NCBI GenBank assembly: GCA_964586355.1
Contig: CAZPGO010000027.1
Coordinates: 1 to 9,085 of the forward strand
DNA from: an uncultured archaeon
Lineage (GTDB): Archaea > Iainarchaeota > Iainarchaeia > Iainarchaeales > CSSED10-239
DNA length: 9,085 nucleotides
Reading direction: 5' to 3'
Made by a program: the position numbers and the translations under genes. The notes beneath the pieces were generated by a model. It was not told the origin of the DNA. It saw only the letters and a program-made list of their open reading frames with translations, and ran no database searches. Position 1 is the stretch's first letter. Each line of letters starts with the position of its first letter. Positions 141 through 9,085 of this stretch are shown here, in pieces.

Positions 141-734
141 CTACCCTTTCAATAACTTTTCTTTTAGATCTTTATATTTGAATTCTTCTTTTAACATCTC
201 ATAATAACATTCATCAATAAATTTATTATTTAAAAAAAGATGCTTTCTATAAAGACCTTGCCTAACAAAACCAAGCTTCTCTAAATGTTTAAAACTTCTT
301 GGGTTAAATGAAAATACTTTTGAATAAATTTTTCTTAGTTTTAGTTTGTCAAAAGCAAATTTGTACATCTCAATTTTTGCTTCATGAATTAATCCAGATC
401 CCCAAAAAGGTTTTCCAATCCAAGATCCACTTTCACAGTTTTTGTTTTTTAGATCTATTTTCGTTAATGATACATTACCAATTACTTCTTTTAATTCTTT
501 GTGATAAATACCAAAATCTAAAGTAAATAATAATCTTTTTTTATTAGCTTTTGAGATCTTTATAAATTTATAACCGTCTTCTAAGGAATATGGATAAGGT
601 ATATTCATAGTATTATCAGAAATTGCTTTTTCTTGAAGATATTTAGTAATTGAAACTGCGTCTGATTTTTTTAATGGTCTTAAGATTAAATGTTTTGTTT
701 CTATTTTTATATTATTATAATTTATGTTACCCAT
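141..734 (-). CDS. GNAT family N-acetyltransferase, RimJ/RimL-like (Acetyltransf_3 type)
   Basis: 197-aa ORF with an ATG start. The N-terminal 'TKHLILRPLKKSDAVSITKYL' is the typical RimJ/RimL opening. The core 'GNVSL...SGSWIGKPFWGSGLIHEAKIEMYKFAFDKLKLRKIYSKVFSFNPRSFKHLEKLGFVRQG' matches GNAT motif A and the acetyl-CoA binding region. Confidence 0.85.
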   Translation of the reverse strand: MGNINYNNIKIETKHLILRPLKKSDAVSITKYLQEKAISDNTMNIPYPYSLEDGYKFIKISKANKKRLLFTLDFGIYHKELKEVIGNVSLTKIDLKNKNCESGSWIGKPFWGSGLIHEAKIEMYKFAFDKLKLRKIYSKVFSFNPRSFKHLEKLGFVRQGLYRKHLFLNNKFIDECYYEMLKEEFKYKDLKEKLLKG

Positions 735-769: not shown

Positions 770-1018
770 CTATTTTCTTTTAAAAAAGGATTTGGTCATT
801 ACACACACCCATTTTAAATGTAATAAAAAATGAATTAGTCCAAAAACAATAAAACCAAAACCAGAAAGAACATGTGATTTTAACCAAAAGATCTTGTTTG
901 TTCCAAGAATCATAAACTGACCAGAACTAAATACCAAAATAATCCCTGAAATTGAAACAATAATAAAACAGATCAATAACAAAAGGTCTATTATATAATT
1001 TATTTTTATTTTATTCAT
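770..1018 (-). CDS. Small membrane protein, DUF4405-like (two TM helices, His-rich second helix)
   Basis: 82-aa ORF with an ATG start. It has two hydrophobic helices (IIDLLLLICFIIVSISGIILVF and VLSGFGFIVFGLIHFLLHLKWV). The 'W..H...G......IH..LH..W' pattern recalls DUF4405. Its stop is followed on the minus strand by ATCTGTTTTT. Its first 62 nt lie inside a 64-bp direct repeat. Confidence 0.65.
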   Translation of the reverse strand: MNKIKINYIIDLLLLICFIIVSISGIILVFSSGQFMILGTNKIFWLKSHVLSGFGFIVFGLIHFLLHLKWVCVMTKSFFKRK

Positions 1019-1020
1019 TT
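957..1020. repeat. Direct repeat copy A (64 bp), pairs with 2403..2466
   Basis: acaataataaaacagatcaataacaaaaggtctattatataatttatttttattttattcattt matches 2403..2466 at 62 of 64 positions. The offset is exactly 1446 bp. The mismatches are at 976 and 986. It covers the start codon and first 20 codons of the membrane-protein gene, plus 2 nt upstream. Confidence 0.95.
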
Positions 1021-1043
1021 TTATCGCTTATTTAAAATTAAAA

Positions 1044-2108
1044 TTAATATTTATTTAAAATTTTCTCTAAATATTCTAAAAATACTTTAGTATCTAAAAA
1101 ATAATTAGGATATGCTTTTTTAAGATCGTGCAGATTGTCTGCACTAACTAATACAACATCATATTGGTTTCTATTATATATTCTTTTTTCGGCATTAGAA
1201 TAAGCTTGAATTGCTTCTTTTTCTTGTTTTTTTGTAAATGCAGAAATATTTAGTCTTTCAAGAACAGTATCTAGTTCCAAAAGATAAAAGTGTATGTTTT
1301 TTTTCTTTTTAAAATCATCAAAGTATTTAATTGACTGCATCCACTGTTTCATTTTTTGCCTTACTTGTAATTCTTTTTCCTTTTCTTTAATTTGTAAATA
1401 AAGTTCTTTTTCATTTTGAGGTGTTTGAGAAACAATAGGAAAGTGTTCCATTCTTGCAAATGCTGAGCTTACTAATTTAAAGAATATTTTCCATTTTTCT
1501 TCTCCTTGATTAGATTTTATTGCTTGTTTTGTAAAAAAATCAACGGTTTCTACTGCTGTTGCCCAAGTGTGCTGTAATTTAGATCTTATCTGCACTTCTA
1601 TTAATAATCCATTATATTTTTTTCCTTTATCACTTTTATATTTATACACTAAATGTATACTCCTATACCCATCTAACTTAGGACTTGCAATATAGTCTTT
1701 TACATTTACTTTTTTGTGTTTAAGGTCTCCATTACGGTAATATTTATCATATAACTCTCTTACTTGCTTTATATTTGATACTATTACTCTACAACCCGCA
1801 ATATCTTGCATCTGCGTTAATTTCATTGTTGGATTGTTATCATTATATTTCCTTTTTAATTTTTTAAGAATTGATGAGACTCTCTTTAATCTCTGTGCAG
1901 ATAGTGCATTTGTATCTACTTTTTCAGAAACATTTTTTAATCTTTTTTTAAAAACTTGCAAAGGAAAACTGTGTTTTGCTTTCCAACTACTCACAATCTC
2001 TAAGGCATTATTTATTTCTGCAGCAGAGTGTGATTTATCATCAGATAGAATTATAGCAGCATTGTTTATCTTTGATTTAGACAGTTCTGTAATCTCTAGC
2101 TGTGCCAT
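1044..2108 (-). CDS. CapRel-like fused toxSAS (RelA/SpoT-domain pyrophosphokinase with C-terminal regulatory/antitoxin-like domain)
   Basis: RelA/SpoT synthetase core: 'LTQMQDIAGCRVIV', 'DYIASPKLDGYRSIHLVYKY', 'LLIEVQIRSKLQHTWATAVETVDFF'. The N-terminal 'ALEIVSSWKAKHSFPLQVF...ALSAQRLKRVSSILKKLKR' and the C-terminal 'VVLVSADNLHDLKKAYPNYFLDTKVFLEYL' match my recollection of the single-chain CapRel/toxSAS family. The tracked ORF extends to 2153 but begins there with GTG. I place the start at the ATG at 2108..2106 (MAQLEITEL...), which lies 26-27 nt downstream of a TTTAAAAT box. Confidence 0.8.
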   Translation of the reverse strand: MAQLEITELSKSKINNAAIILSDDKSHSAAEINNALEIVSSWKAKHSFPLQVFKKRLKNVSEKVDTNALSAQRLKRVSSILKKLKRKYNDNNPTMKLTQMQDIAGCRVIVSNIKQVRELYDKYYRNGDLKHKKVNVKDYIASPKLDGYRSIHLVYKYKSDKGKKYNGLLIEVQIRSKLQHTWATAVETVDFFTKQAIKSNQGEEKWKIFFKLVSSAFARMEHFPIVSQTPQNEKELYLQIKEKEKELQVRQKMKQWMQSIKYFDDFKKKKNIHFYLLELDTVLERLNISAFTKKQEKEAIQAYSNAEKRIYNRNQYDVVLVSADNLHDLKKAYPNYFLDTKVFLEYLEKILNKY

Positions 2109-2130
2109 AATATTATATTGGAGCAAAACT

Positions 2131-2138
2131 ATTTTAAA
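2131..2138 (-). promoter_or_regulatory. Candidate TATA box giving a leaderless CapRel-like mRNA
   Basis: The minus strand reads CTTTAAAATAG, with the box centre about 26-27 nt upstream of the ATG at 2108. A second box, AGAAATTATAAAAAA, lies at 2156..2170. Low specificity in AT-rich DNA. Confidence 0.3.
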
Positions 2139-2178
2139 GACAGCATATTGCACGGTTTTTTATAATTTCTAGTATCAC

Positions 2179-2352
2179 TTTGCGCGGAAAAAATCTAAAC
2201 ATAAATTCATCTGTAAAACCTTTATTTAATTAGGTTTAAAGCAAATATTTATGTTTTAATTAATATTGCTTTAAAAAAATAGGTCGTTTTGCGCGGTAAC
2301 CACAAAAATAAAAGGTTAATTTGCGCGGAAGGATTTAACAACCTAAAAATAA
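2179..2352 (+). repeat. Three same-orientation copies of a GC-cored intergenic element (core TTTGCGCGG at 2179, 2288, 2320)
   Basis: Exact 9-mer TTTGCGCGG at 2179..2187, 2288..2296 and 2320..2328. Each copy is followed within 10-25 nt by an A-rich tail: CTAAACATAAAT, ACAAAAATAAAAG and CTAAAAATAAAG. A fourth, diverged copy is at 3186..3220. Confidence 0.7.
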
Positions 2353-2371
2353 AGATCATTCTAATTTTATT

Positions 2372-2464
2372 TTACCAAAAAAACTTGTTTTTATTGGATT
2401 TTACAATAATAAAACAGATCAGTAACAAAAGATCTATTATATAATTTATTTTTATTTTATTCAT
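2372..2464 (-). pseudogene. Duplicated 5' fragment of the DUF4405-like gene (30 codons)
   Basis: The minus-strand translation is MNKIKINYIIDLLLLICFIIV-KSNKNKFFW*. The first 21 residues are identical to the start of the 770..1018 protein; the sequence then diverges to a stop. Its ATG overlaps the RelE-like stop as ATGA and is preceded by AAGGACAATAA. Confidence 0.6.
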
Positions 2465-2466
2465 TT
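2403..2466. repeat. Direct repeat copy B (64 bp), pairs with 957..1020
   Basis: acaataataaaacagatcagtaacaaaagatctattatataatttatttttattttattcattt. It is 62/64 identical to copy A. Similarity ends abruptly on both sides. Confidence 0.95.
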
Positions 2467-2856
2467 ATTGTCCTTTTTTTTAAAATCACTACTATTTTTT
2501 TCAATAGTTTTTATTTTTTCATAAAATATTTTTTGTTTACTAGATTTAACCAAACTATTAAATCTATTTATATTTTCAAAATCATAATTAGATATTAAAT
2601 TATAAACATTTTTTCTATGACAAATTTTTATAATTATAATCTTTTTTTCTTTCTCTTTAATTAAATAAATAATTCTATAATCTCCAATATGTAAAGATCT
2701 TATATTTTTTAAAATATTACTCAATGGTTTACCTAATTCAATATTACTATCTAGTTCTTTTAATTTTTTTAATATTTGTAAAATTATTGAGTGATCTAAT
2801 TTATATAATTCTTTCTTTGCAGAATAAACATAGAATCTTTCATAAATCATTTTCAT
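2461..2856 (-). CDS. relE: RelE/ParE-family type II toxin with a roughly 50-aa Lys/Asn-rich C-terminal extension
   Basis: 'KKELYKLDHSIILQILKKLKEL......GKPLSNILKNIRSLHIGDYRIIYLIKEKEKKIIIIKICHRKNVY' follows the RelE/ParE pattern (G.pL.g.l.g..s.riGdYRiiY.i......i.i..i.hRk.vY). The tracked ORF begins with TTG at 2865. ATG codons at 2856 and 2850 are more plausible starts, and either overlaps the antitoxin stop (2840) by 11-17 nt. Confidence 0.8.
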   Translation of the reverse strand: MKMIYERFYVYSAKKELYKLDHSIILQILKKLKELDSNIELGKPLSNILKNIRSLHIGDYRIIYLIKEKEKKIIIIKICHRKNVYNLISNYDFENINRFNSLVKSSKQKIFYEKIKTIEKNSSDFKKKDNK

Positions 2857-3073
2857 CAATACCAAGCTCTTTAAGTATTTCTGATTCTTTTATTAGGTCT
2901 CCTTTTTTATAGGCAATCTCAGCATCTTCTGATAATTTAATAATTTCTAACATTTCTAAACAATCTATTTCTTTTTGAATAGATTTTCTAGCAACTTCAC
3001 TCCATCTAATTTCTGGATATTTTTTCATATTCTGATACATTTTTTGAGGAATTGATAAAGTTATATTTGGCAT
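2840..3073 (-). CDS. Putative antitoxin of the RelE-like toxin
   Basis: 77-aa ORF with an ATG start, immediately upstream of and overlapping the toxin gene. This is the classic antitoxin-first type II arrangement. The N-terminal 'ITLSIPQKMYQNMKKYPEIRWSEVARKSIQKEI' resembles small archaeal DNA-binding antitoxins. The C-terminus is acidic (EILKELGIDENDL). Confidence 0.7.
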   Translation of the reverse strand: MPNITLSIPQKMYQNMKKYPEIRWSEVARKSIQKEIDCLEMLEIIKLSEDAEIAYKKGDLIKESEILKELGIDENDL

Positions 3074-3143
3074 AATATATCACATAAATATTAAAATACA
3101 AAATATTTTTAAAATATGTGTTTACACAGGTTTTTCGGTATTA

Positions 3144-3168
3144 ACTGCTCTTTATTCAGCGGTTTTTT
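3144..3168 (+). other. Orphan hairpin plus U-tract (terminator-like or small RNA 3' end)
   Basis: ACTGCT (3144..3149) pairs with AGCGGT (3158..3163), forming 6 bp including one G:U. The loop is 8 nt (CTTTATTC) and the stem is followed by TTTTT. There is no plus-strand ORF upstream. It sits in a relatively GC-rich patch of the 3074..3328 spacer. Confidence 0.25.
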
Positions 3169-3185
3169 ATAAATTGAAGCATAAA

Positions 3186-3220
3186 TTTGCGCAAGGGATT
3201 TTAGATCTAAAAACAAAGGG
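3186..3220 (+). repeat. Fourth, diverged copy of the GC-cored element (TTTGCGCAAGG...)
   Basis: AATTTGCGCAAGGGATTTTAGATCTAAAAACAAAG aligns with AATTTGCGCGGAAGGATTTAACAACCTAAAAATAAAG at 2318..2354. It contains the perfect 8-bp palindrome TTGCGCAA. It lies in the divergent promoter spacer between the antitoxin gene and the 3329 ORF. Confidence 0.5.
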
Positions 3221-3328
3221 ATAAAATTTATTTTCTTTTTAACATATTAAAAACACCTAAAAAAACACAGATCTACTAAAATTAAAAACATTTAAAAAAA
3301 CTATAGATTAAAGATATAATAGAAAAAT

Positions 3329-3724
3329 ATGAATATATTAATAATCTCTCAAAAAGATTTTTTTAAAGAATTACCAATAATAAGATTTAATATAAAAAAC
3401 CACACAACTTTTTTACAAACAATGGAACTTGGTAAAACTTATAACTATATTAATAAAAACAAACTTTTCTTAGATAAAGATATAGATCTAATAAAACAAG
3501 TTGATGCTTTATTAGTATGTAATTTCAAAAAAGGAAAAGAAGAGAATCATGTTAGTACATATTGCTTAATACTTATGGCAATTGCTCATTCTTATGAAAA
3601 AAAGATCTATTTACTTTATAATCTTCCAAAGAAAAACTTTAAAGAAGAATTAGAATCACTTGAACCAATTTGTCTTCTTGGAGATATTAAGAATTTAAAA
3701 CAAACAATTAGTGCTAAATTGTAA
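3329..3724 (+). CDS. Nucleoside 2-deoxyribosyltransferase-like protein (function uncertain)
   Basis: 131-aa ORF with an ATG start, followed by TAA plus T6. 'IKQVDALLVCNFKKGKEENHVSTYCLILMAIAHSYEKKIYLLYNLPKKNFKEELESLEPICLLGDIKNL' resembles the family pattern I recall for small NDT-like proteins (I..sDallvlN......yiG.st..Em..A....K.Iyll..iP......Ei....P..L.GDl). The usual Gly-containing N-terminal loop is not evident (IIISQKDF). Confidence 0.5.
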   Translation: MNILIISQKDFFKELPIIRFNIKNHTTFLQTMELGKTYNYINKNKLFLDKDIDLIKQVDALLVCNFKKGKEENHVSTYCLILMAIAHSYEKKIYLLYNLPKKNFKEELESLEPICLLGDIKNLKQTISAKL

Positions 3725-3770
3725 TTTTTTAAAAATTATTACACCACAAAAAATAGTTTTGTCTAAAAAA
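3725..3770. terminator. Convergent oligo-T tracts (after the 3329 ORF on plus, after tRNA-His on minus)
   Basis: T6 at 3725..3730 directly follows the TAA of the plus-strand ORF. A6 at 3765..3770 is T6 on the minus strand, directly after the tRNA-His discriminator. Confidence 0.35.
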
Positions 3771-3843
3771 GGTCCGAACCGGGATTCGAACCCGGGTCCT
3801 AAGATCCACAGTCTTAGATGCTAACCACTACACAATTCGGACC
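3771..3843 (-). tRNA. tRNA-His, anticodon GUG, with genomically encoded G-1
   Basis: The reverse complement folds as G(-1) GTCCGAA TT GTGT AGTGGTTA GCAT C TAAGA CTGTGGA TCTTA GGAC CCGGG TTCGAAT CCCGG TTCGGAC C. The anticodon is GTG. The extra 5' G opposite discriminator C73 is the His identity element. No CCA is encoded (next bases are TTTTTT). Confidence 0.92.
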
Positions 3844-3865
3844 ATTAATTTAAATTATTTGTATA

Positions 3866-3875
3866 TATTTTATAA
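3866..3875 (-). promoter_or_regulatory. Candidate archaeal TATA box for tRNA-His
   Basis: The minus strand reads TTATAAAATA at -32..-23 from G-1, the same spacing as the box upstream of tRNA-Thr. Confidence 0.3.
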
Positions 3876-3944
3876 TCCAAAACATTTAAAATCTTAAATA
3901 TAATATATATTATTAGCAAAACATATAAAAAGAGTTTTTATGCC

Positions 3945-5516
3945 ATGATCAAAAACAAAGGAGATAATGAAATAATTAGCCAAGCACTAATTATATTAAT
4001 CGTAACAATTACAGTAGGGTTGATTATAACTGTACTACTACCATTTATTGGAGAAATGCAATCAAAAATAAGATATGAAAACTCTGTTAAACAACTAGAT
4101 ATCCTTGATCAAAAAATCTCTGAAATTATAAATGCGCCTATTGGAACCACTAAAGAAATATATCTAAATTTAACTCAACTTCATCTAAGCATAGATAATA
4201 ACAAAATAGAAATATATTCAATAACAAATAACAATTCTTCATTTTTTAAAGACGGATTAAGAATTGATGAAGGAAATAAATATAGCTATAGAGAAGGTCA
4301 AAAAATAGTGGTTGGAATTAGTTATCCTAGTATTAGTTTTGGTGGTTCTATTAGTTTAGAAAATATAAATAATGTTAACTTAATAATTAAAAAAACAAAT
4401 AAAAACTATTTATCCATATCTCAAGAAAACATTACAAGTTCTCAATGGTATAGTTCTTCAAGAAACATCTATTCTCAAGATCAAGGAAACTATGAATTTA
4501 GAAAATTATTATTAATTAATTATTCTAAGGTTGAAGGAGATTTAAAAAATTTTCCAGTATTAATACACCTAGAAGATGAAGATCTAAAAAATTATGCAAA
4601 AAACGATGGATCAGACATAATGTTTACATTAGGAGATGGAGTAACTAAACTTAATAGAGAAATAGAAAGCTTTTTTCAAACAAAATATTTTTATAAAAAA
4701 ATAATAATAGATTCTTCAAAAGTAGAAGAAGATCTTATAGATTTTAAAATGCTATTTTCAACAAGTGATGAAGATCTAATAGAATATTCAAGAAATGATG
4801 GTAAAGATATTTATTTTACTCTTTTAGATAAAGAAACAAAAATTGATCATGAGATAGAATATTTTAATAAAGAAAATGGAAAATTAATTACATGGATAAA
4901 AATACCATTCATTTCCAAAACTAACAACACAGAAATATATATGTTTTTTGGAGATCAAATATACATTAATACAGAAAATATTTGGAATGAAAATTATTTG
5001 TTAGTACAACATCTTAACGACACTCCAAGTAATGGATTAGTTAATGGATTTATTGATTCTTCTATATATTCTAATCATGGAACAGCTACTGGTTTTTATA
5101 ATAATGAATATTCAAATACTGATTATAATGGAGTTATTGATGGAGCAATAATTTTAGATGTTAATAACAATTATATTAATTTAAATAACACCATTAATCT
5201 AAAAAAATCAGACAAATTTGTAATAAGCGGTTGGATTCAAAGAAAAGAAAGTGATCTTGAAACCTATGATGAACTATCCGAAAACATAATTACTCAAAAA
5301 GGATGGGGATCTTGGGCAATTGTTACAGATGATTCAAATATTTCTTTTGTTTTTGATGATGATGTTAAAAGATGTGAAACAGAAATAAATACAAACGAAT
5401 TTGTTAATTTTGTTTTTGTTAATGATGTTGATGATGATGTTGGGTATGGTAGTAATCGATTATTATTGTATATTAATGGAGAACTGGTTAATAATTGTCC
5501 AACAATTGATGAATAA
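3945..5516 (+). CDS. Membrane-anchored or pilin-like surface protein: N-terminal TM/class-III-like signal, 1.5 DUF2341 repeats, C-terminally truncated LamG (Laminin_G_3) domain
   Basis: 523 aa. N-terminus: 'MIKNKG DNEIISQALIILIVTITVGLIITVLLPFI'. DUF2341 signatures: 'YEFRKLLLINYSKVEGDLKNFPVLIHL...NDGSDIMF...LNREIESF' and 'YFYKKIIIDSSKVEEDLIDFKMLF...NDGKDIYF...IDHEIEYF...LITWIKIPFISKTNNTEIYMFFGD'. LamG start: 'WNENYLLVQHLND...DSSIYSNHGTA', then 'FVISGWIQ' and 'NRLLLYINGELVNN'. A stop follows immediately. Confidence 0.85.
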   Translation: MIKNKGDNEIISQALIILIVTITVGLIITVLLPFIGEMQSKIRYENSVKQLDILDQKISEIINAPIGTTKEIYLNLTQLHLSIDNNKIEIYSITNNNSSFFKDGLRIDEGNKYSYREGQKIVVGISYPSISFGGSISLENINNVNLIIKKTNKNYLSISQENITSSQWYSSSRNIYSQDQGNYEFRKLLLINYSKVEGDLKNFPVLIHLEDEDLKNYAKNDGSDIMFTLGDGVTKLNREIESFFQTKYFYKKIIIDSSKVEEDLIDFKMLFSTSDEDLIEYSRNDGKDIYFTLLDKETKIDHEIEYFNKENGKLITWIKIPFISKTNNTEIYMFFGDQIYINTENIWNENYLLVQHLNDTPSNGLVNGFIDSSIYSNHGTATGFYNNEYSNTDYNGVIDGAIILDVNNNYINLNNTINLKKSDKFVISGWIQRKESDLETYDELSENIITQKGWGSWAIVTDDSNISFVFDDDVKRCETEINTNEFVNFVFVNDVDDDVGYGSNRLLLYINGELVNNCPTIDE

Positions 5517-5535
5517 AAAATAAGGGTTTATATTT

Positions 5536-7071
5536 ATGTTAAAAAAAATTATTTTATTTTGTTTAATTTTGTTAATATTACCAAATACATTTGCAGAAAT
5601 AACAATAGAAGTTTTACCAGCACCTGTTATTAGTGCAGAGCTTGTTGAAGGAGGAGATCTATCTCCAAATACCACTTATTATTTTGCTGCATTTGCAGGA
5701 ATTATATCAAGTGGAGCATATGGGGGTAATTCAATTAGCCCTGCAAGTAATATGGTTACTATAACCACTACTGAAACACATAAATCAATTAAAATAATTT
5801 GGGGAGTTTTAGAAAGTCCAACAACACACACATTTATTAGATGGGATACAGATTCATTACAAGACGAAAATGGAGAATACATTCCACAAGAATCCAGAAA
5901 ATTTACTGCTCTTGGATGGTCTGGAAATTCAGGAACAGAAGTTACCTTAACTTCTCTTTCTGAACAAAGTGTGAGTTATGCTTTATTAACACATCCAGAA
6001 CTATCTATTTTACCAGAATATTTAGATTCTAGAATAAATAGAAAAAAAGGTATTTGTAAACTTACAATTACAGGAACAGAAACCTATGAAAATCTCATTA
6101 ACACAATAAGAAATAGTGATCATAATGATATGTTTATAATAAATAATAATTCATTTACTACTCTTTGTTCAATCTATGGAACAGGGTCACTAACCTTTGA
6201 AAATAAAAATATTAAATTTCTTTATACTAAAAATTTAAATCCAAACATAAACTTTAATAATTCTTTAATATTTTCAGAAAACAAAAGTCAAAGTGGTGGA
6301 AACTATGGAAATTTTTATAATTGTAGTATTAGAATAAATAATAATTATCAATACAGTTTTAAAAATGATTATTCCAACATAAAAATTAGTGGAGATCGAG
6401 AACTTCTATTGCACAATGGCATTAATAGTGATTTAGATCTTTCTTACGATCTAATAAAATATTATAGCACCGAAAAAATAAGAGAATTAACAAATATGAC
6501 CTACAGAAACAAGTCTGTATATCTATATCGATTTAGTTCCATAAAAGACACAAATACAGACATTTATAACAACTATTTTGAGAACTGTGGCACTCGTGAT
6601 CTATTACTTTATGCATCAAGTTCAGGTTATCTTTCTGAAGGTGTTACAGATGACTCAAATTATAATATTTATAATAGTTATAGTAATAGAGAAAGTAAAC
6701 TGCCATTAGTAAGCTATGTAGATCAATCTAGTTGGACAGGAGTGAGCAGAGTAAAAGCAAAATTATTTTACACTCAATATTTTAATATTACAGATAAATT
6801 TGGAAATCCAATAGATCAAGCAAAAATAATTATTAAAGATTCTAATAATACTACAATTTCTGAAATTTATACAGATATTAATGGATCTGTAGACTATAAC
6901 CTTATGACACATTTAATAGAATATGATGAAACAAATGCTAATGGATTAAGATCTAAATATCATTACCAAGGACCATTTACAATAACAGTTTCCAAATATG
7001 GATATTACTCATATAGATCTAAACAAGAAATAATTTCTGAAAAAAATCAAAAAATTAGTTTACAAAGTTAA
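5536..7071 (+). CDS. Secreted surface protein module: Sec signal peptide, Ig/FN3-like N-domain, Asn-rich beta-helix-like middle, C-terminal prealbumin/CarboxypepD_reg-like domain
   Basis: 511 aa. Signal peptide 'MLKKIILFCLILLILPNTFA|EITIE'. The upstream sequence has AAGGG about 10 nt before the ATG. The C-terminal 'FNITDKFGNPIDQAKIIIKDSNNTTISEIYTDINGSVDY...GPFTITVSKYGYYSY' fits the carboxypeptidase-regulatory-like fold pattern. It is a clear paralogue of the N-terminal roughly 520 aa of the next gene. Confidence 0.85.
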   Translation: MLKKIILFCLILLILPNTFAEITIEVLPAPVISAELVEGGDLSPNTTYYFAAFAGIISSGAYGGNSISPASNMVTITTTETHKSIKIIWGVLESPTTHTFIRWDTDSLQDENGEYIPQESRKFTALGWSGNSGTEVTLTSLSEQSVSYALLTHPELSILPEYLDSRINRKKGICKLTITGTETYENLINTIRNSDHNDMFIINNNSFTTLCSIYGTGSLTFENKNIKFLYTKNLNPNINFNNSLIFSENKSQSGGNYGNFYNCSIRINNNYQYSFKNDYSNIKISGDRELLLHNGINSDLDLSYDLIKYYSTEKIRELTNMTYRNKSVYLYRFSSIKDTNTDIYNNYFENCGTRDLLLYASSSGYLSEGVTDDSNYNIYNSYSNRESKLPLVSYVDQSSWTGVSRVKAKLFYTQYFNITDKFGNPIDQAKIIIKDSNNTTISEIYTDINGSVDYNLMTHLIEYDETNANGLRSKYHYQGPFTITVSKYGYYSYRSKQEIISEKNQKISLQS

Positions 7072-7082
7072 AAGGATAATAA

Positions 7083-9085
7083 ATGATTAAAAAATATAAT
7101 TTCATAGTTTTAATATTAATATTATTAATAATACCAAACATACATTCAGCAATAAATATAACCATTTTACAAAAACCAACACTTTCTTTAGAACTAGTAG
7201 AAGGCGGATCTTTAACAGAAAATACTAGATATTACTTTAGTGGATATAATCACCTTGGCTCAACACAACACAGTGATTCTGTTAGTCCTGCAGCAGATCA
7301 AGTTTATATAGATACAAACACAACACACAAAAGCATAAAAATAACCTGGGGCGAAATACCTTCTCCAGCAACAGAAATGGCAATTAAATGGGACACAATT
7401 CCTTTAGTTGATGAAAATGGAGAATTTATTCCAGATAGAAAAACATCAAATCTAAAATATTTAACAGCACCATCTGTTGGATTTACAGGAACCGAAACAA
7501 TAATGACTGATGAAATCTTAGTTGGGTCTATTGGTGCCTGGTCACACCTGGAATTATCTGTTCCAATAGAGGAAACAGATCCAAAAATCAATAGAAAAAA
7601 AGGAATTTGTTATATAGAAGTTACAGAGACACACACATATGAGGAATTTGTTACAGCAATTCAAAATTCAGATGCTAATGATTTAGTTTTAATAAATAGA
7701 GATAATATGATTTTACCTTGCTCAATATATGGATCTGGAAAAATAGAATTTAATAAAAAAAATATTACTTTTCTTTATTCTATATCCAAAAATTCAGAAA
7801 TAGAATTTAACAATTCACAAATACATTTTATATCTCCAAAACAAACAATAAACATTAATTTTAAACTAAATGAATCTACAATACTACCAAGCGACACAAG
7901 CATAGCATCAATTGCTTTATCTGGTTATTTTGGAAAAAATAATATTATATATTTTTCTGATTTTGCATTTAATTTACAAACATATACTTCTTTATCTGAT
8001 CTTATTTTGACAAACAACAGAATAAATTTTAGATATCCACAAGATAATTGGTATTTTAATAATTCGATAATAAATAATGGACATATATACCAATCACCAA
8101 CTATAAGCCAGAATAACGCAGATATTTATTATATTAATACAATCTGGAATAATAAAAACACAGCACAAACATATGATCTAATTATAGGAGATACTAGCTA
8201 CTACAAAAACAAATCAGAAGACTTTTATCAAAATGTATATCTAATAAACTCAAATAGCGATAGACCAGATAGACTCCCAATAATAAGATTTGCTGATTTT
8301 GATAATTCTAGTAATCTTATTGATATTAAAGTTTTTGTTTTACAAACATTAAGTTTTCAAATATTAGATCAAAATGGAGATCCTTTAGAAAATGCTACAA
8401 TATCTATTACAGATAATAACAATACTAATTATTTATTAACTACTAACTCACTTGGAGTTATAGATCAAAATACACAAACACATTTAATAAAATATAAATC
8501 CATATTAGAAGGTGGTGGAGATAATAGAACAGAAATAATAGATCTTAATCCTTTTACTATTGTTATAAATAAAGAAGGATATGAAACATATACAACAACA
8601 CAAACAATAAAAGAAAAAGAAGAATTTGTTATTAATTTACCAGAATCTAGTCTAAAAATTGGAGCTGTTCAAAAAGAAGGATTAGATATTAAGGGTTTTT
8701 CAGGAGTTGTTGATGAAATAAGAATAGCAGATAACATAAGATCTTCAAAAACTATAAAAGCAGAATATAATAATCAAGTGAATCCTAGTGAATTTTATAG
8801 TGTTGGATCAAAAGAAACAGCACCAACATCATCTTTATTTGCTTGGGTAAAAATACCTGAACTCTCTTCAACAAAAGACACACCGATCTACATGTATTTT
8901 GGAAACCCACTTGCAAATGAAACTAATGACAAAGAAACATGGGATGATGATTTTGTTATGGTACAACATCTTAATGAATCTCCAAATAATAATGAAATAG
9001 ACGGACATAAAGATTCTACAAAAAATAACAAACACGGAATAGCAAAAGGGTTTGATAATATTTATTCAACAACAAATATTCAAGG
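7083..9085 (+). CDS. Partial (3'-open) mosaic surface protein: paralogous module (signal peptide, Ig/FN3-like, beta-helix-like, prealbumin-like) fused to a LamG C-terminal fragment, a DUF2341 C-terminal half and a new LamG start
   Basis: Not in the supplied ORF track because it has no stop in the window. I translated it codon by codon from the ATG at 7083 (preceded by AAGGATAATAA) to 9085 and found no in-frame stop. It starts 'MIKKYNFIVLILILLIIPNIHS|AINITILQKPTLSLELVEGGSL...'. Later features: 'FQILDQNGDPLENATISITD...FTIVINKEGYETY', then 'SLKIGAVQKEGLDIKGFSGVVDEIRIADNIRSSKTIKAEYNNQ', then 'LFAWVKIPELSSTKDTPIYMYFGNP', then 'WDDDFVMVQHLNESPNN'. Confidence 0.85.
   Translation, partial: MIKKYNFIVLILILLIIPNIHSAINITILQKPTLSLELVEGGSLTENTRYYFSGYNHLGSTQHSDSVSPAADQVYIDTNTTHKSIKITWGEIPSPATEMAIKWDTIPLVDENGEFIPDRKTSNLKYLTAPSVGFTGTETIMTDEILVGSIGAWSHLELSVPIEETDPKINRKKGICYIEVTETHTYEEFVTAIQNSDANDLVLINRDNMILPCSIYGSGKIEFNKKNITFLYSISKNSEIEFNNSQIHFISPKQTININFKLNESTILPSDTSIASIALSGYFGKNNIIYFSDFAFNLQTYTSLSDLILTNNRINFRYPQDNWYFNNSIINNGHIYQSPTISQNNADIYYINTIWNNKNTAQTYDLIIGDTSYYKNKSEDFYQNVYLINSNSDRPDRLPIIRFADFDNSSNLIDIKVFVLQTLSFQILDQNGDPLENATISITDNNNTNYLLTTNSLGVIDQNTQTHLIKYKSILEGGGDNRTEIIDLNPFTIVINKEGYETYTTTQTIKEKEEFVINLPESSLKIGAVQKEGLDIKGFSGVVDEIRIADNIRSSKTIKAEYNNQVNPSEFYSVGSKETAPTSSLFAWVKIPELSSTKDTPIYMYFGNPLANETNDKETWDDDFVMVQHLNESPNNNEIDGHKDSTKNNKHGIAKGFDNIYSTTNIQ

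Follow-up and report, generated by a model that had tools for sequence, protein, structure and literature searches.

Why does a CapRel-like gene in the window (the whole stretch of DNA that was analysed, 9,085 nt) lie between two copies of the start of a neighbouring membrane-protein gene, and how could such a unit have been inserted? A sequence-only reading had proposed that an antitoxin-RelE-membrane operon was split by a self-contained cassette, captured at an att-like site or by homology. The host genome is very AT-rich and probably archaeal, and the features of the locus are as follows.

770-1018, minus strand: the intact target gene, which encodes an 82-aa DUF4405 membrane protein (Pfam PF14358, E 1e-9; orthologues in L085-L088).
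957-1020, minus strand: direct repeat copy A, the start of the intact DUF4405 gene (repeat search, MAFFT, outgroup comparison).
1021-1043, minus strand: 23-nt spacer from the CapRel stop to copy A (L089 homology ends at 1041).
1044-2108, minus strand: predicted CapRel-family fused toxin-antitoxin gene, 354 aa (Pfam, PADLOC and PDB matches).
2109-2355, minus strand: putative cassette promoter/operator region (boxes, TATA-like element; 74% to the L089 upstream region).
2356-2376, minus strand: LivG-like ABC ATPase relic, last six codons and stop (aligns with the 3' end of the L089/L090 ABC gene).
2377-2402, minus strand: 26-nt filler from copy B to the relic (no homologue among the fetched loci).
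2403-2466, minus strand: direct repeat copy B, opening a 30-codon stub ORF at 2372-2464, minus strand (ORF list, repeat search, MAFFT).
2461-2856, minus strand: ParE/RelE-type toxin gene, in the ORF 2461-2865 (Pfam ParE_toxin, 2.7e-11; orthologue in L087).
2840-3073, minus strand: antitoxin gene of the resident type II pair (L087 orthologue marked RHH_12).
3186-3194, minus strand: fourth box of the same kind as those at 2109-2355, TTTGCGCAA on the plus strand (repeat family; it precedes the antitoxin-ParE operon and a TATA-like element).

The repeat search and MAFFT alignment showed that 957-1020 and 2403-2466 are 62/64 identical at an offset of 1446 (BLAST E about 1e-28), and the 30 nt upstream of copies A and B resembled each other no more than shuffled sequences did (p = 0.20), indicating that similarity ends at both repeat edges, as the sequence-only reading had described. 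There was no significant sign that the duplication continues into the spacer ahead of the ATG (p 0.2-0.3). The repeat was correctly recognized as the DUF4405 gene start, and consists of two bases ahead of the ATG, codons 1-20 and two bases of codon 21. The stub that copy B opens was also recovered, with its ATG overlapping the TGA of the ParE/RelE gene (ATGA). Both mismatches between the copies (976/2422 and 986/2432) are indeed synonymous (TTG/CTG, Leu, and GAC/GAT, Asp); however, outgroup comparison showed that the GAC of copy A is derived and arose after insertion, so that identity at formation was at least 63/64, and the two mismatches say little. The concern that the 64-mer might be a generic dispersed repeat was not borne out, as it was confined, among 166 fetched loci, to contigs of the window's own population.

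The 1,382 nt that separate the repeats (1021-2402) encode a RelA_SpoT ORF alone, consistent with the claim of a cassette lacking a recombinase. This region had been described as holding only the CapRel-like gene and a 249-bp upstream region with three repeated elements; the sole gene and the three elements stand, but the start codon is the ATG used by homologues (1044-2108), and the figure of 249 nt stems from a GTG at 2153. No exact protein on record matched the 134-aa RelE or the 369-aa CapRel. GC content was rejected as a cassette marker, since it did not make the cassette distinct (26.6% vs 25.2%).

The assignment of the gene rests on several matches. Pfam RelA_SpoT (PF04607) matched residues 72-184 with an E of 4.3e-20, identifying a toxSYNTH domain, and phmmer aligned residues 9-349 to residues 15-368 of 7ZTB (E 6.6e-45; CapRel-SJ46, PDB 7ZTB/9ERV), a sequence alignment that places a C-terminal autoinhibitory/sensor domain in the same polypeptide. 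The G-loop Tyr (DGYRSIH, aligned to SGYSGIH of CapRel-SJ46, Y155) and the YXXY motif (KKAYPNYF, identical in both proteins; Y352/Y355) are kept; the roles of this Tyr and of the YXXY neutralisation motif in CapRel-SJ46 have been described (PMC9712102). The PADLOC profile PDC-S33, of which we found no mention in the literature, was matched over positions 5-343 of 349 (E 4.6e-116). These data identify the gene at 1044-2108 as a CapRel-type fused toxSAS, the full-length alignment and the PDC-S33 match upholding its earlier designation as CapRel-like. By homology with CapRel-SJ46, the C-terminal domain would hold the protein inactive, a viral protein would lift this inhibition, and the freed N-terminal domain would pyrophosphorylate tRNA 3' ends and thereby stop translation, suggesting both an antiviral function and tRNA modification for the window CapRel.

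Upstream of the gene, three (CC)GCGCAAA boxes (TTTGCGCGG on the plus strand) are located at 2179-2187, 2288-2296 and 2320-2328; near 2158-2165 there is a TATA-like TTATAAAA. No known RNA family was found in this region, and a sigma-70 scan of it yielded fewer sites than shuffled sequences. A GCGCAA box array upstream of CapRel is kept across this archaeal and bacterial clade and covaries with lineage; such a clade-specific regulatory array offers a testable control element.

We compared the locus with those of related lineages. In L087 and L088 (~80% nt identity), a gene for a 131-aa protein (minus strand), the antitoxin gene, the ParE gene, a 25-nt spacer, the DUF4405 gene and a GNAT gene are arranged without the cassette, and the 64-mer region is single-copy. 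The uninterrupted antitoxin-RelE/ParE-DUF4405 arrangement that had been postulated thus exists in a relative. The cassette lies between the parE/relE and DUF4405 genes, and its insertion left a 64-bp target duplication, while the type II pair (a ParE/RelE toxin gene and its upstream antitoxin gene in one operon) is a resident neighbour outside it. It could be, however, that L087 represents precise loss through the repeats and not an ancestral empty site. The exact empty-site pattern (copy A left flank, 48 N and copy B right flank) had no match in metagenome and genome contig collections; as these lack the window's population (best CapRel 82%), this absence carries no information. In L085 (92% nt identity) and L086 (87.5%), the CapRel stop is directly upstream of the DUF4405 gene, and the C-terminus in these two loci was matched by none of the top CapRel clusters.

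The same cassette, which the sequence-only reading had proposed might occur at other loci, was found at 86% nucleotide identity over window positions 1041-2377 in L089 and L090, in an unrelated context and without a bracketing repeat. In L089 it sits behind a LivG-like ABC ATPase gene, and the window cassette contains a 21-nt relic of the 3' end of such a gene (GGTAAAATAAAATTAGAATGA, GKIKLE*), supporting the view that the relic was probably carried over from an earlier cassette location; L005 similarly contains a 55-nt relic of the LivM 3' end. The 26-nt filler had no homologue among the fetched loci, and the 23-nt spacer showed no significant similarity to the host spacer. There are approximately 5,000 CapRel homologues, and among the 120 matches listed, which are 61-100% identical to the query, the hosts are DPANN archaea and CPR bacteria. 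Neighbouring genes place hosts in both domains (L020 has RuvC and YebC, L064 an archaeal histone), so that the same gene family is found near archaeal genes in some genomes and bacterial genes in others. No IMG/VR contig carried a CapRel more than 44% identical that would point to a viral vehicle. The description of the cassette as self-contained was sustained; it also occurs at other loci, and many homologue loci have bracketing repeats of their own. Taking the whole explanation together, we consider it somewhat probable that the cassette at 1021-2402 is self-contained, serves in defence and moves horizontally.

Bracketing direct repeats (at least 32 bits) were present at 13 of the 56 homologue loci that had enough flank, compared with 0 of 78 displaced controls of the same geometry. 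The repeats seen were 18-174 nt long, were unrelated in sequence between loci, and marked targets that included the 5' or 3' ends of genes, terminators and the 3' flanks of tRNAs, at least 12 of the targets being unrelated; conserved cassette termini were not found among the homologue loci. The 43 loci without such a repeat indicate that duplication is not obligatory. Other single genes were bracketed likewise in the same loci (an NYN-like gene in L063, and also in L036, L056 and L020, the last with a 2.3-kb insert), suggesting that the process is generic and not CapRel-specific, and further bracketed inserts were observed in L045 and, as a four-gene island, in L023. The tandem unit-unit-cassette-unit arrangement of L063 fits a duplication-prone repair process. 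In L038, where cassettes are stacked at one site, six changes separate a duplicated gene start from the intact copy, all of them synonymous, which fits better with a copy from a diverged homologue than with duplication in situ. We found no circular cassette contigs and no literature on repeat-flanked gene insertion in DPANN.

This pattern led us to infer that imprecise DNA fragments are captured without a recombinase, the target being duplicated in the process. The unrelated repeats, their unfixed lengths, the unconserved ends and the relics argue against a transposase or an att-specific integrase, and support a cassette that lacks a recombinase and defined ends and moves on imprecisely cut DNA together with relics of its previous neighbours. 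Insertion would be an illegitimate event performed by the host replication/repair machinery, through template switching or fill-in at a staggered break, either of which would produce a duplicated target stretch of no fixed length; as overhangs of 64-174 nt would not separate unaided, a replicative version must be assumed. We regard this insertion step as having a little less than an even chance of being correct. More speculatively, the 64-bp repeats, once made, would permit RadA/RecA to loop out a 1,446-bp circle, and this circle could re-enter empty orthologous sites.

The strongest rival explanation is homology-driven insertion-duplication of the Campbell type, in which a relative's fragment containing the cassette before a DUF4405 homologue, having been circularised or excised as a loop from an earlier repeat-flanked copy, would be inserted by a single RadA/RecA crossover in the shared 64 bp. 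The synonymous nature of both repeat mismatches, the six synonymous and zero non-synonymous differences of the L038 duplicate and the sharp repeat ends, which fit a bounded homology block, are in keeping with this model, and L085 and L086, which share the CapRel-DUF4405 junction, could be donors. However, one of the two mismatches post-dates insertion, some repeats are just 18-32 nt, no circular contigs were found, and L005 holds flanking sequence that lay beyond the earlier repeat and would be missing from a looped-out circle. Homology-driven capture, as the sequence-only reading put it, could account for a looped-out circle re-entering an empty orthologous site, but it cannot explain the first repeat at a new target, and there are at least 12 unrelated targets. 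We consider this model rather unlikely as the origin of the window repeat.

A broader proposal, which we think doubtful, is that DPANN and CPR share an undescribed cross-domain mover of promoter-plus-gene units that leaves long target duplications of unfixed length, acting through a trans-acting system or through a contribution of the cassette itself (a GCGCAA array bound by CapRel, for autoregulation or recombination). A dedicated insertion system acting in trans, resembling a transposase or Cas1 and lacking a fixed ruler, would move promoter-plus-gene cassettes in DPANN/CPR and would account for the strong enrichment of bracketing repeats at one gene family and at other single genes in the same islands, and for the occurrence of the phenomenon in two domains of life. 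With end signals not found, an approximately tenfold spread in repeat length and no candidate enzyme seen near the cassettes, such a dedicated system appears improbable.

It was also suggested that the 64-mer is an att-like site, and 64 bp is within the usual size range of archaeal att sites. The cassette would then be a non-autonomous mini-element for which a tyrosine integrase may act in trans: a Phage_integrase gene lies just past the neighbouring tRNA-Thr in the population variant L002, and several cassettes at tRNA 3' ends have repeats that take in the final 7-9 nt of the tRNA (L009, L033 and probably L072). The L072 flank resembles a tRNA 3' end, and ARAGORN calls no tRNA there. The att-like site did not hold up, as the repeats (18-174 nt) share no sequence between loci, the cassette termini are unconserved and relics of earlier neighbours are retained; moreover, the exact 34-nt core of the 64-mer had no match in IMG/VR, and a separate integrase would be required for each target, making this explanation very improbable. 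Finally, although the contigs are metagenomic and typical k-mers exceed the repeat in length, an assembly artefact or chance repeat, the former also a concern of the sequence-only reading, is exceedingly improbable, given the BLAST E of 1e-28 and the two positions at which the copies differ, and given that L003, a variant independently assembled from another sample (99.27% identical, 17 mismatches), has the identical structure with both copies and the same two differences.

These observations suggest that a one-gene immune system can move without carrying a recombinase, and they widen the range of CapRel-type immunity to DPANN and CPR lineages. With empty and filled sites, a second location and neighbour relics all available, junctions in ultra-small genomes could be surveyed systematically.

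We compared the cassette with known mobile systems. It is unlike an insertion sequence or transposon in encoding only the CapRel ORF between unconserved termini and repeats that range from 18 to 174 nt. Integrative elements that target tRNA genes, with a tyrosine integrase and att duplication, likewise have direct repeats of tens of bp, several homologue cassettes lie at tRNA 3' ends, and an integrase gene is near the window locus in one strain variant; however, no integrase is encoded between the repeats, the loci have no common att core, and the window repeat is the 5' end of a protein-coding gene. Integron gene cassettes are also small single-gene units, often of toxin-antitoxin or defence genes, and can be stacked at one site, as in L038, but no IntI is encoded in the window, an attC site is not apparent, the cassette has its own putative promoter, and the bounding repeat is a local copy of target coding sequence (here DUF4405) that differs at each locus. 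The pdif modules of Acinetobacter plasmids are recombinase-less, 1-2 kb long, carry single accessory or toxin-antitoxin genes and are moved by the host XerC/D; the window cassette resembles them in lacking a recombinase, but pdif modules are bounded by conserved 28-bp Xer sites, and no conserved boundary sequence was seen here. Campbell-type insertion-duplication and the flanking-repeat gene transposition described in Arabidopsis (PMC2869330) share with the window a single non-transposon gene, target-homologous direct repeats and no transposase, whereas the present case is a natural prokaryotic event with repeats of 18-174 nt and a first duplication that a Campbell-type crossover does not explain. 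The predicted protein is like CapRel-SJ46 in its full-length alignment, RelA_SpoT toxSYNTH domain, G-loop Tyr and YXXY motif, and in being a single gene with no separate antitoxin, but it belongs to a distinct clade of DPANN archaea and CPR bacteria whose identity to prophage CapRels is below 45%, is chromosomal and outside any prophage, and has a conserved upstream GCGCAA box array that is absent at 50 prophage CapRel loci.

The window, with a G+C content of 25%, carries a gene island that is bordered by two tRNA genes and contains these features:

1-74, tRNA-Thr, one border of the island
141-734, minus strand, GNAT gene
770-1018, minus strand, DUF4405 gene (82 aa)
1044-2108, minus strand, RelA_SpoT (CapRel) gene (354 aa)
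2372-2464, minus strand, stub of 30 codons
2461-2856, minus strand, ParE/RelE toxin gene
2840-3073, minus strand, antitoxin gene of the ParE/RelE toxin
3770-3843, tRNA-His, the other border

The contigs of this population are identical as far as the tRNA-Thr 3' end (window position 1, the contig end) and diverge beyond it, where L002 encodes a 394-aa tyrosine integrase (1380-3408) and L001 has AAA_14/DUF4143 and NYN genes (1380-4303); the tRNA-Thr 3' end is a variable integration hotspot adjoining the cassette island. Elsewhere in the window, the neighbouring paralogues 5536-7071 and 7083-9085 encode secreted proteins that match CarboxypepD_reg and DUF2341 weakly. They are preceded by a 523-aa DUF2341 protein with a hydrophobic N-terminus, and all three look like typical DPANN-like surface proteins.

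The sequence-only reading described a direct repeat covering the start of the DUF4405 gene, and our repeat comparison reproduced it. Copy A (957-1020, at the intact gene) and copy B (2403-2466, opening the stub) are 62/64 identical at an offset of 1446 bp (BLAST E about 1e-28), spanning from 2 bases 5' of the DUF4405 ATG to the second base of codon 21, with both mismatches synonymous. Upstream of the two copies, similarity was not above that of shuffled sequence. An identical DUF4405 protein is encoded in four sister-sample contigs, one of which, the 99.27% variant L003, holds both copies unchanged, showing that the repeat is not an artefact of one assembly. Comparison with the outgroup DUF4405 loci L085-L088 indicated that GAC in copy A arose in the window's own lineage, and the copies were therefore at least 63/64 identical at formation. 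Separately, L003 differs from the window at 17 positions, 12 of which are packed into 19 nt (222-240) close to where the GNAT gene ends, on its 3' side, in what looks like a small recombination tract or replaced segment.

A homologue search returned few DUF4405 homologues, and these included the anticipated empty site. L087 and L088, which resemble the window at 75% aa and about 80% nt, have the order 131-aa gene (minus strand), antitoxin, ParE, 25-nt spacer, full-length DUF4405 and GNAT, with no CapRel gene and the 64-mer region in single copy. L085 (92% nt) and L086 (87.5% nt) share the window's arrangement, a CapRel stop codon directly preceding DUF4405, so that the boundary between presence and absence of the cassette falls exactly at the repeat. 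The simpler account is that the window's clade gained the cassette, although the L087 lineage may have lost it precisely through the repeats. The window's ParE/RelE gene, whose G+C content is only 15.7%, encodes a C-terminus 11 residues longer than that of the L087 orthologue (window 2461-2500 vs L087 1012-1056), by read-through of the old spacer as far as the stub, which it overlaps at ATGA.

The cassette was also found elsewhere. The closest other CapRel protein among the matches listed (P0002, 90% aa) is encoded in L089/L090, between a LivG-like ABC ATPase gene and unrelated small ORFs. Homology to the window cassette (86% nt) extends over 1041-2377 and ends there, and its left end in L089/L090 takes in the final codons of this ABC gene, GGCAAAGTCAAATTAGAATAA, whose encoded GKV aligns with a conserved strand of LivG. 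The window retains GGTAAAATAAAATTAGAATGA at 2356-2376, where no ABC gene lies in the vicinity; its cassette therefore derives from an L089-like context, with this scrap carried along. Similarly, the CapRel locus L005 contains about 55 nt of the 3' end of a LivM-type permease gene that is intact in L025.

The window's CapRel family has about 5,000 matches; the 120 listed share 61-100% identity with the query and are labelled by their sources as DPANN archaea and CPR bacteria, with neighbouring genes confirming bacterial (RuvC and YebC in L020) and archaeal (histone in L064) hosts. Eighty metagenome loci were fetched, 56 of them with sufficient flank; in 13 of these the promoter-plus-gene unit stands between direct repeats scoring at least 32 bits, compared to 0/78 in a displaced control of the same geometry at the same loci.

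Bracketing repeats at CapRel homologue loci
L025, 32 nt, 100% identity
L076, 41 nt, 100% identity
L024, 54 nt
L036, 87 nt
L033, 157 nt
L063, 174 nt

The repeats are copies of whatever local sequence stands at the site: a gene start (L038), gene ends (L025, L036), terminators, and tRNA 3' flanks in L009, L033 and, probably, L072, though ARAGORN calls no tRNA there. Repeats of different loci had no sequence in common, and neither the first nor the last bases of the cassette were conserved across loci. The same kind of bracketing is seen around other single genes of these loci. In the CPR bacterium L020, a 2.3-kb insert with one 711-aa gene (5067-7411) separates the CapRel cassette from tRNA-Gly. 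Its borders carry a duplicated terminator hairpin together with the initial bases of the tRNA 3' end; L029 (5046-5110) has the uninterrupted arrangement. In L063, a non-coding unit of about 176 nt occurs three times, as a tandem pair ahead of the cassette (3531-3820) and as a single copy behind it (5088-5260). Two insertions are stacked at the sulfotransferase gene start of L038 (2786-5164), where an FkbM methyltransferase is fused in frame to a duplicated start (MPRAGSTLLQN) and is followed by another copy of that start (34 nt), then by the CapRel cassette and finally by the intact sulfotransferase gene.

Two further arrangements were observed. L013 contains, 1.8 kb upstream of its intact cassette (3572-4892), the remnant of a second one (1781-2083), which is internally deleted, as 224 nt of promoter region are joined straight to 73 nt of the gene 3' end. 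In L009, but not L010 or L012, a TehB-like methyltransferase gene (1575-2197) lies directly upstream of the cassette, with only about 10 nt (TTAAAGTWA) repeated at its borders.

The promoter region of the unit contains an array of boxes, and one more box lies outside it:

2179-2187, (CC)GCGCAA(A) box upstream of the CapRel gene
2288-2296, the same
2320-2328, the same
3186-3194, further box, upstream of the resident antitoxin-ParE operon

The array is conserved in nearly all DPANN/CPR homologues: of 70 non-redundant loci, 58 have at least two GCGCAA boxes on the gene strand within the 250 nt preceding the gene, at a density of 10.4 per kb vs 0.15 per kb elsewhere (70-fold enrichment). The distance from box to box is often about 32 or 54 nt, with a TATA-like TTTAAATA about 7 nt downstream of the proximal box, and the variants GCGCAAAAYGAYA, GCGCAATTTGACA and CCGCCCAAAA co-vary with cassette lineage. 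Prophage CapRel loci (n=50) had no such array, and no Rfam family matched the CapRel upstream region.

As the sequence-only reading stated, no recombinase is encoded between copies A and B. We favor an insertion carried out by host replication or repair, through template switching or the filling-in of staggered breaks, which would duplicate a target stretch of variable length, given this absence, the lack of a fixed duplication length, defined ends or a common core, and the relics of former neighbours, which show that the moving piece is imprecisely cut. Its main competitor is insertion-duplication, in which a circularised fragment enters by one homologous crossover. The duplicated sulfotransferase start of L038, with 6 synonymous and 0 non-synonymous changes relative to the intact gene, speaks for this route, but such a crossover cannot generate a repeat where the target is new. 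A transposase, which would leave a fixed-length duplication and defined ends, and an integrase, which would leave a common core, are both disfavoured since none of these was seen, as is the earlier proposal of att-like capture. With the 64-bp repeats in place, the unit could loop out and re-enter, and to that extent the homology-driven capture proposed in the sequence-only reading may hold.

The earlier label "CapRel-like" was correct as a sequence family, based on several matches. The RelA_SpoT ORF matches PADLOC candidate family PDC-S33 (E 4.6e-116), and its residues 9-349 align with the fused toxSAS antiphage protein CapRel-SJ46 (7ZTB, 9ERV; E 6.6e-45), including the G-loop tyrosine; a CapRel function is thereby predicted for the 354-aa protein. 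The segment KKAYPNYF is identical in both proteins and contains the YXXY motif, which in CapRel-SJ46 occludes the active site as long as no phage protein is bound (PMC9712102).
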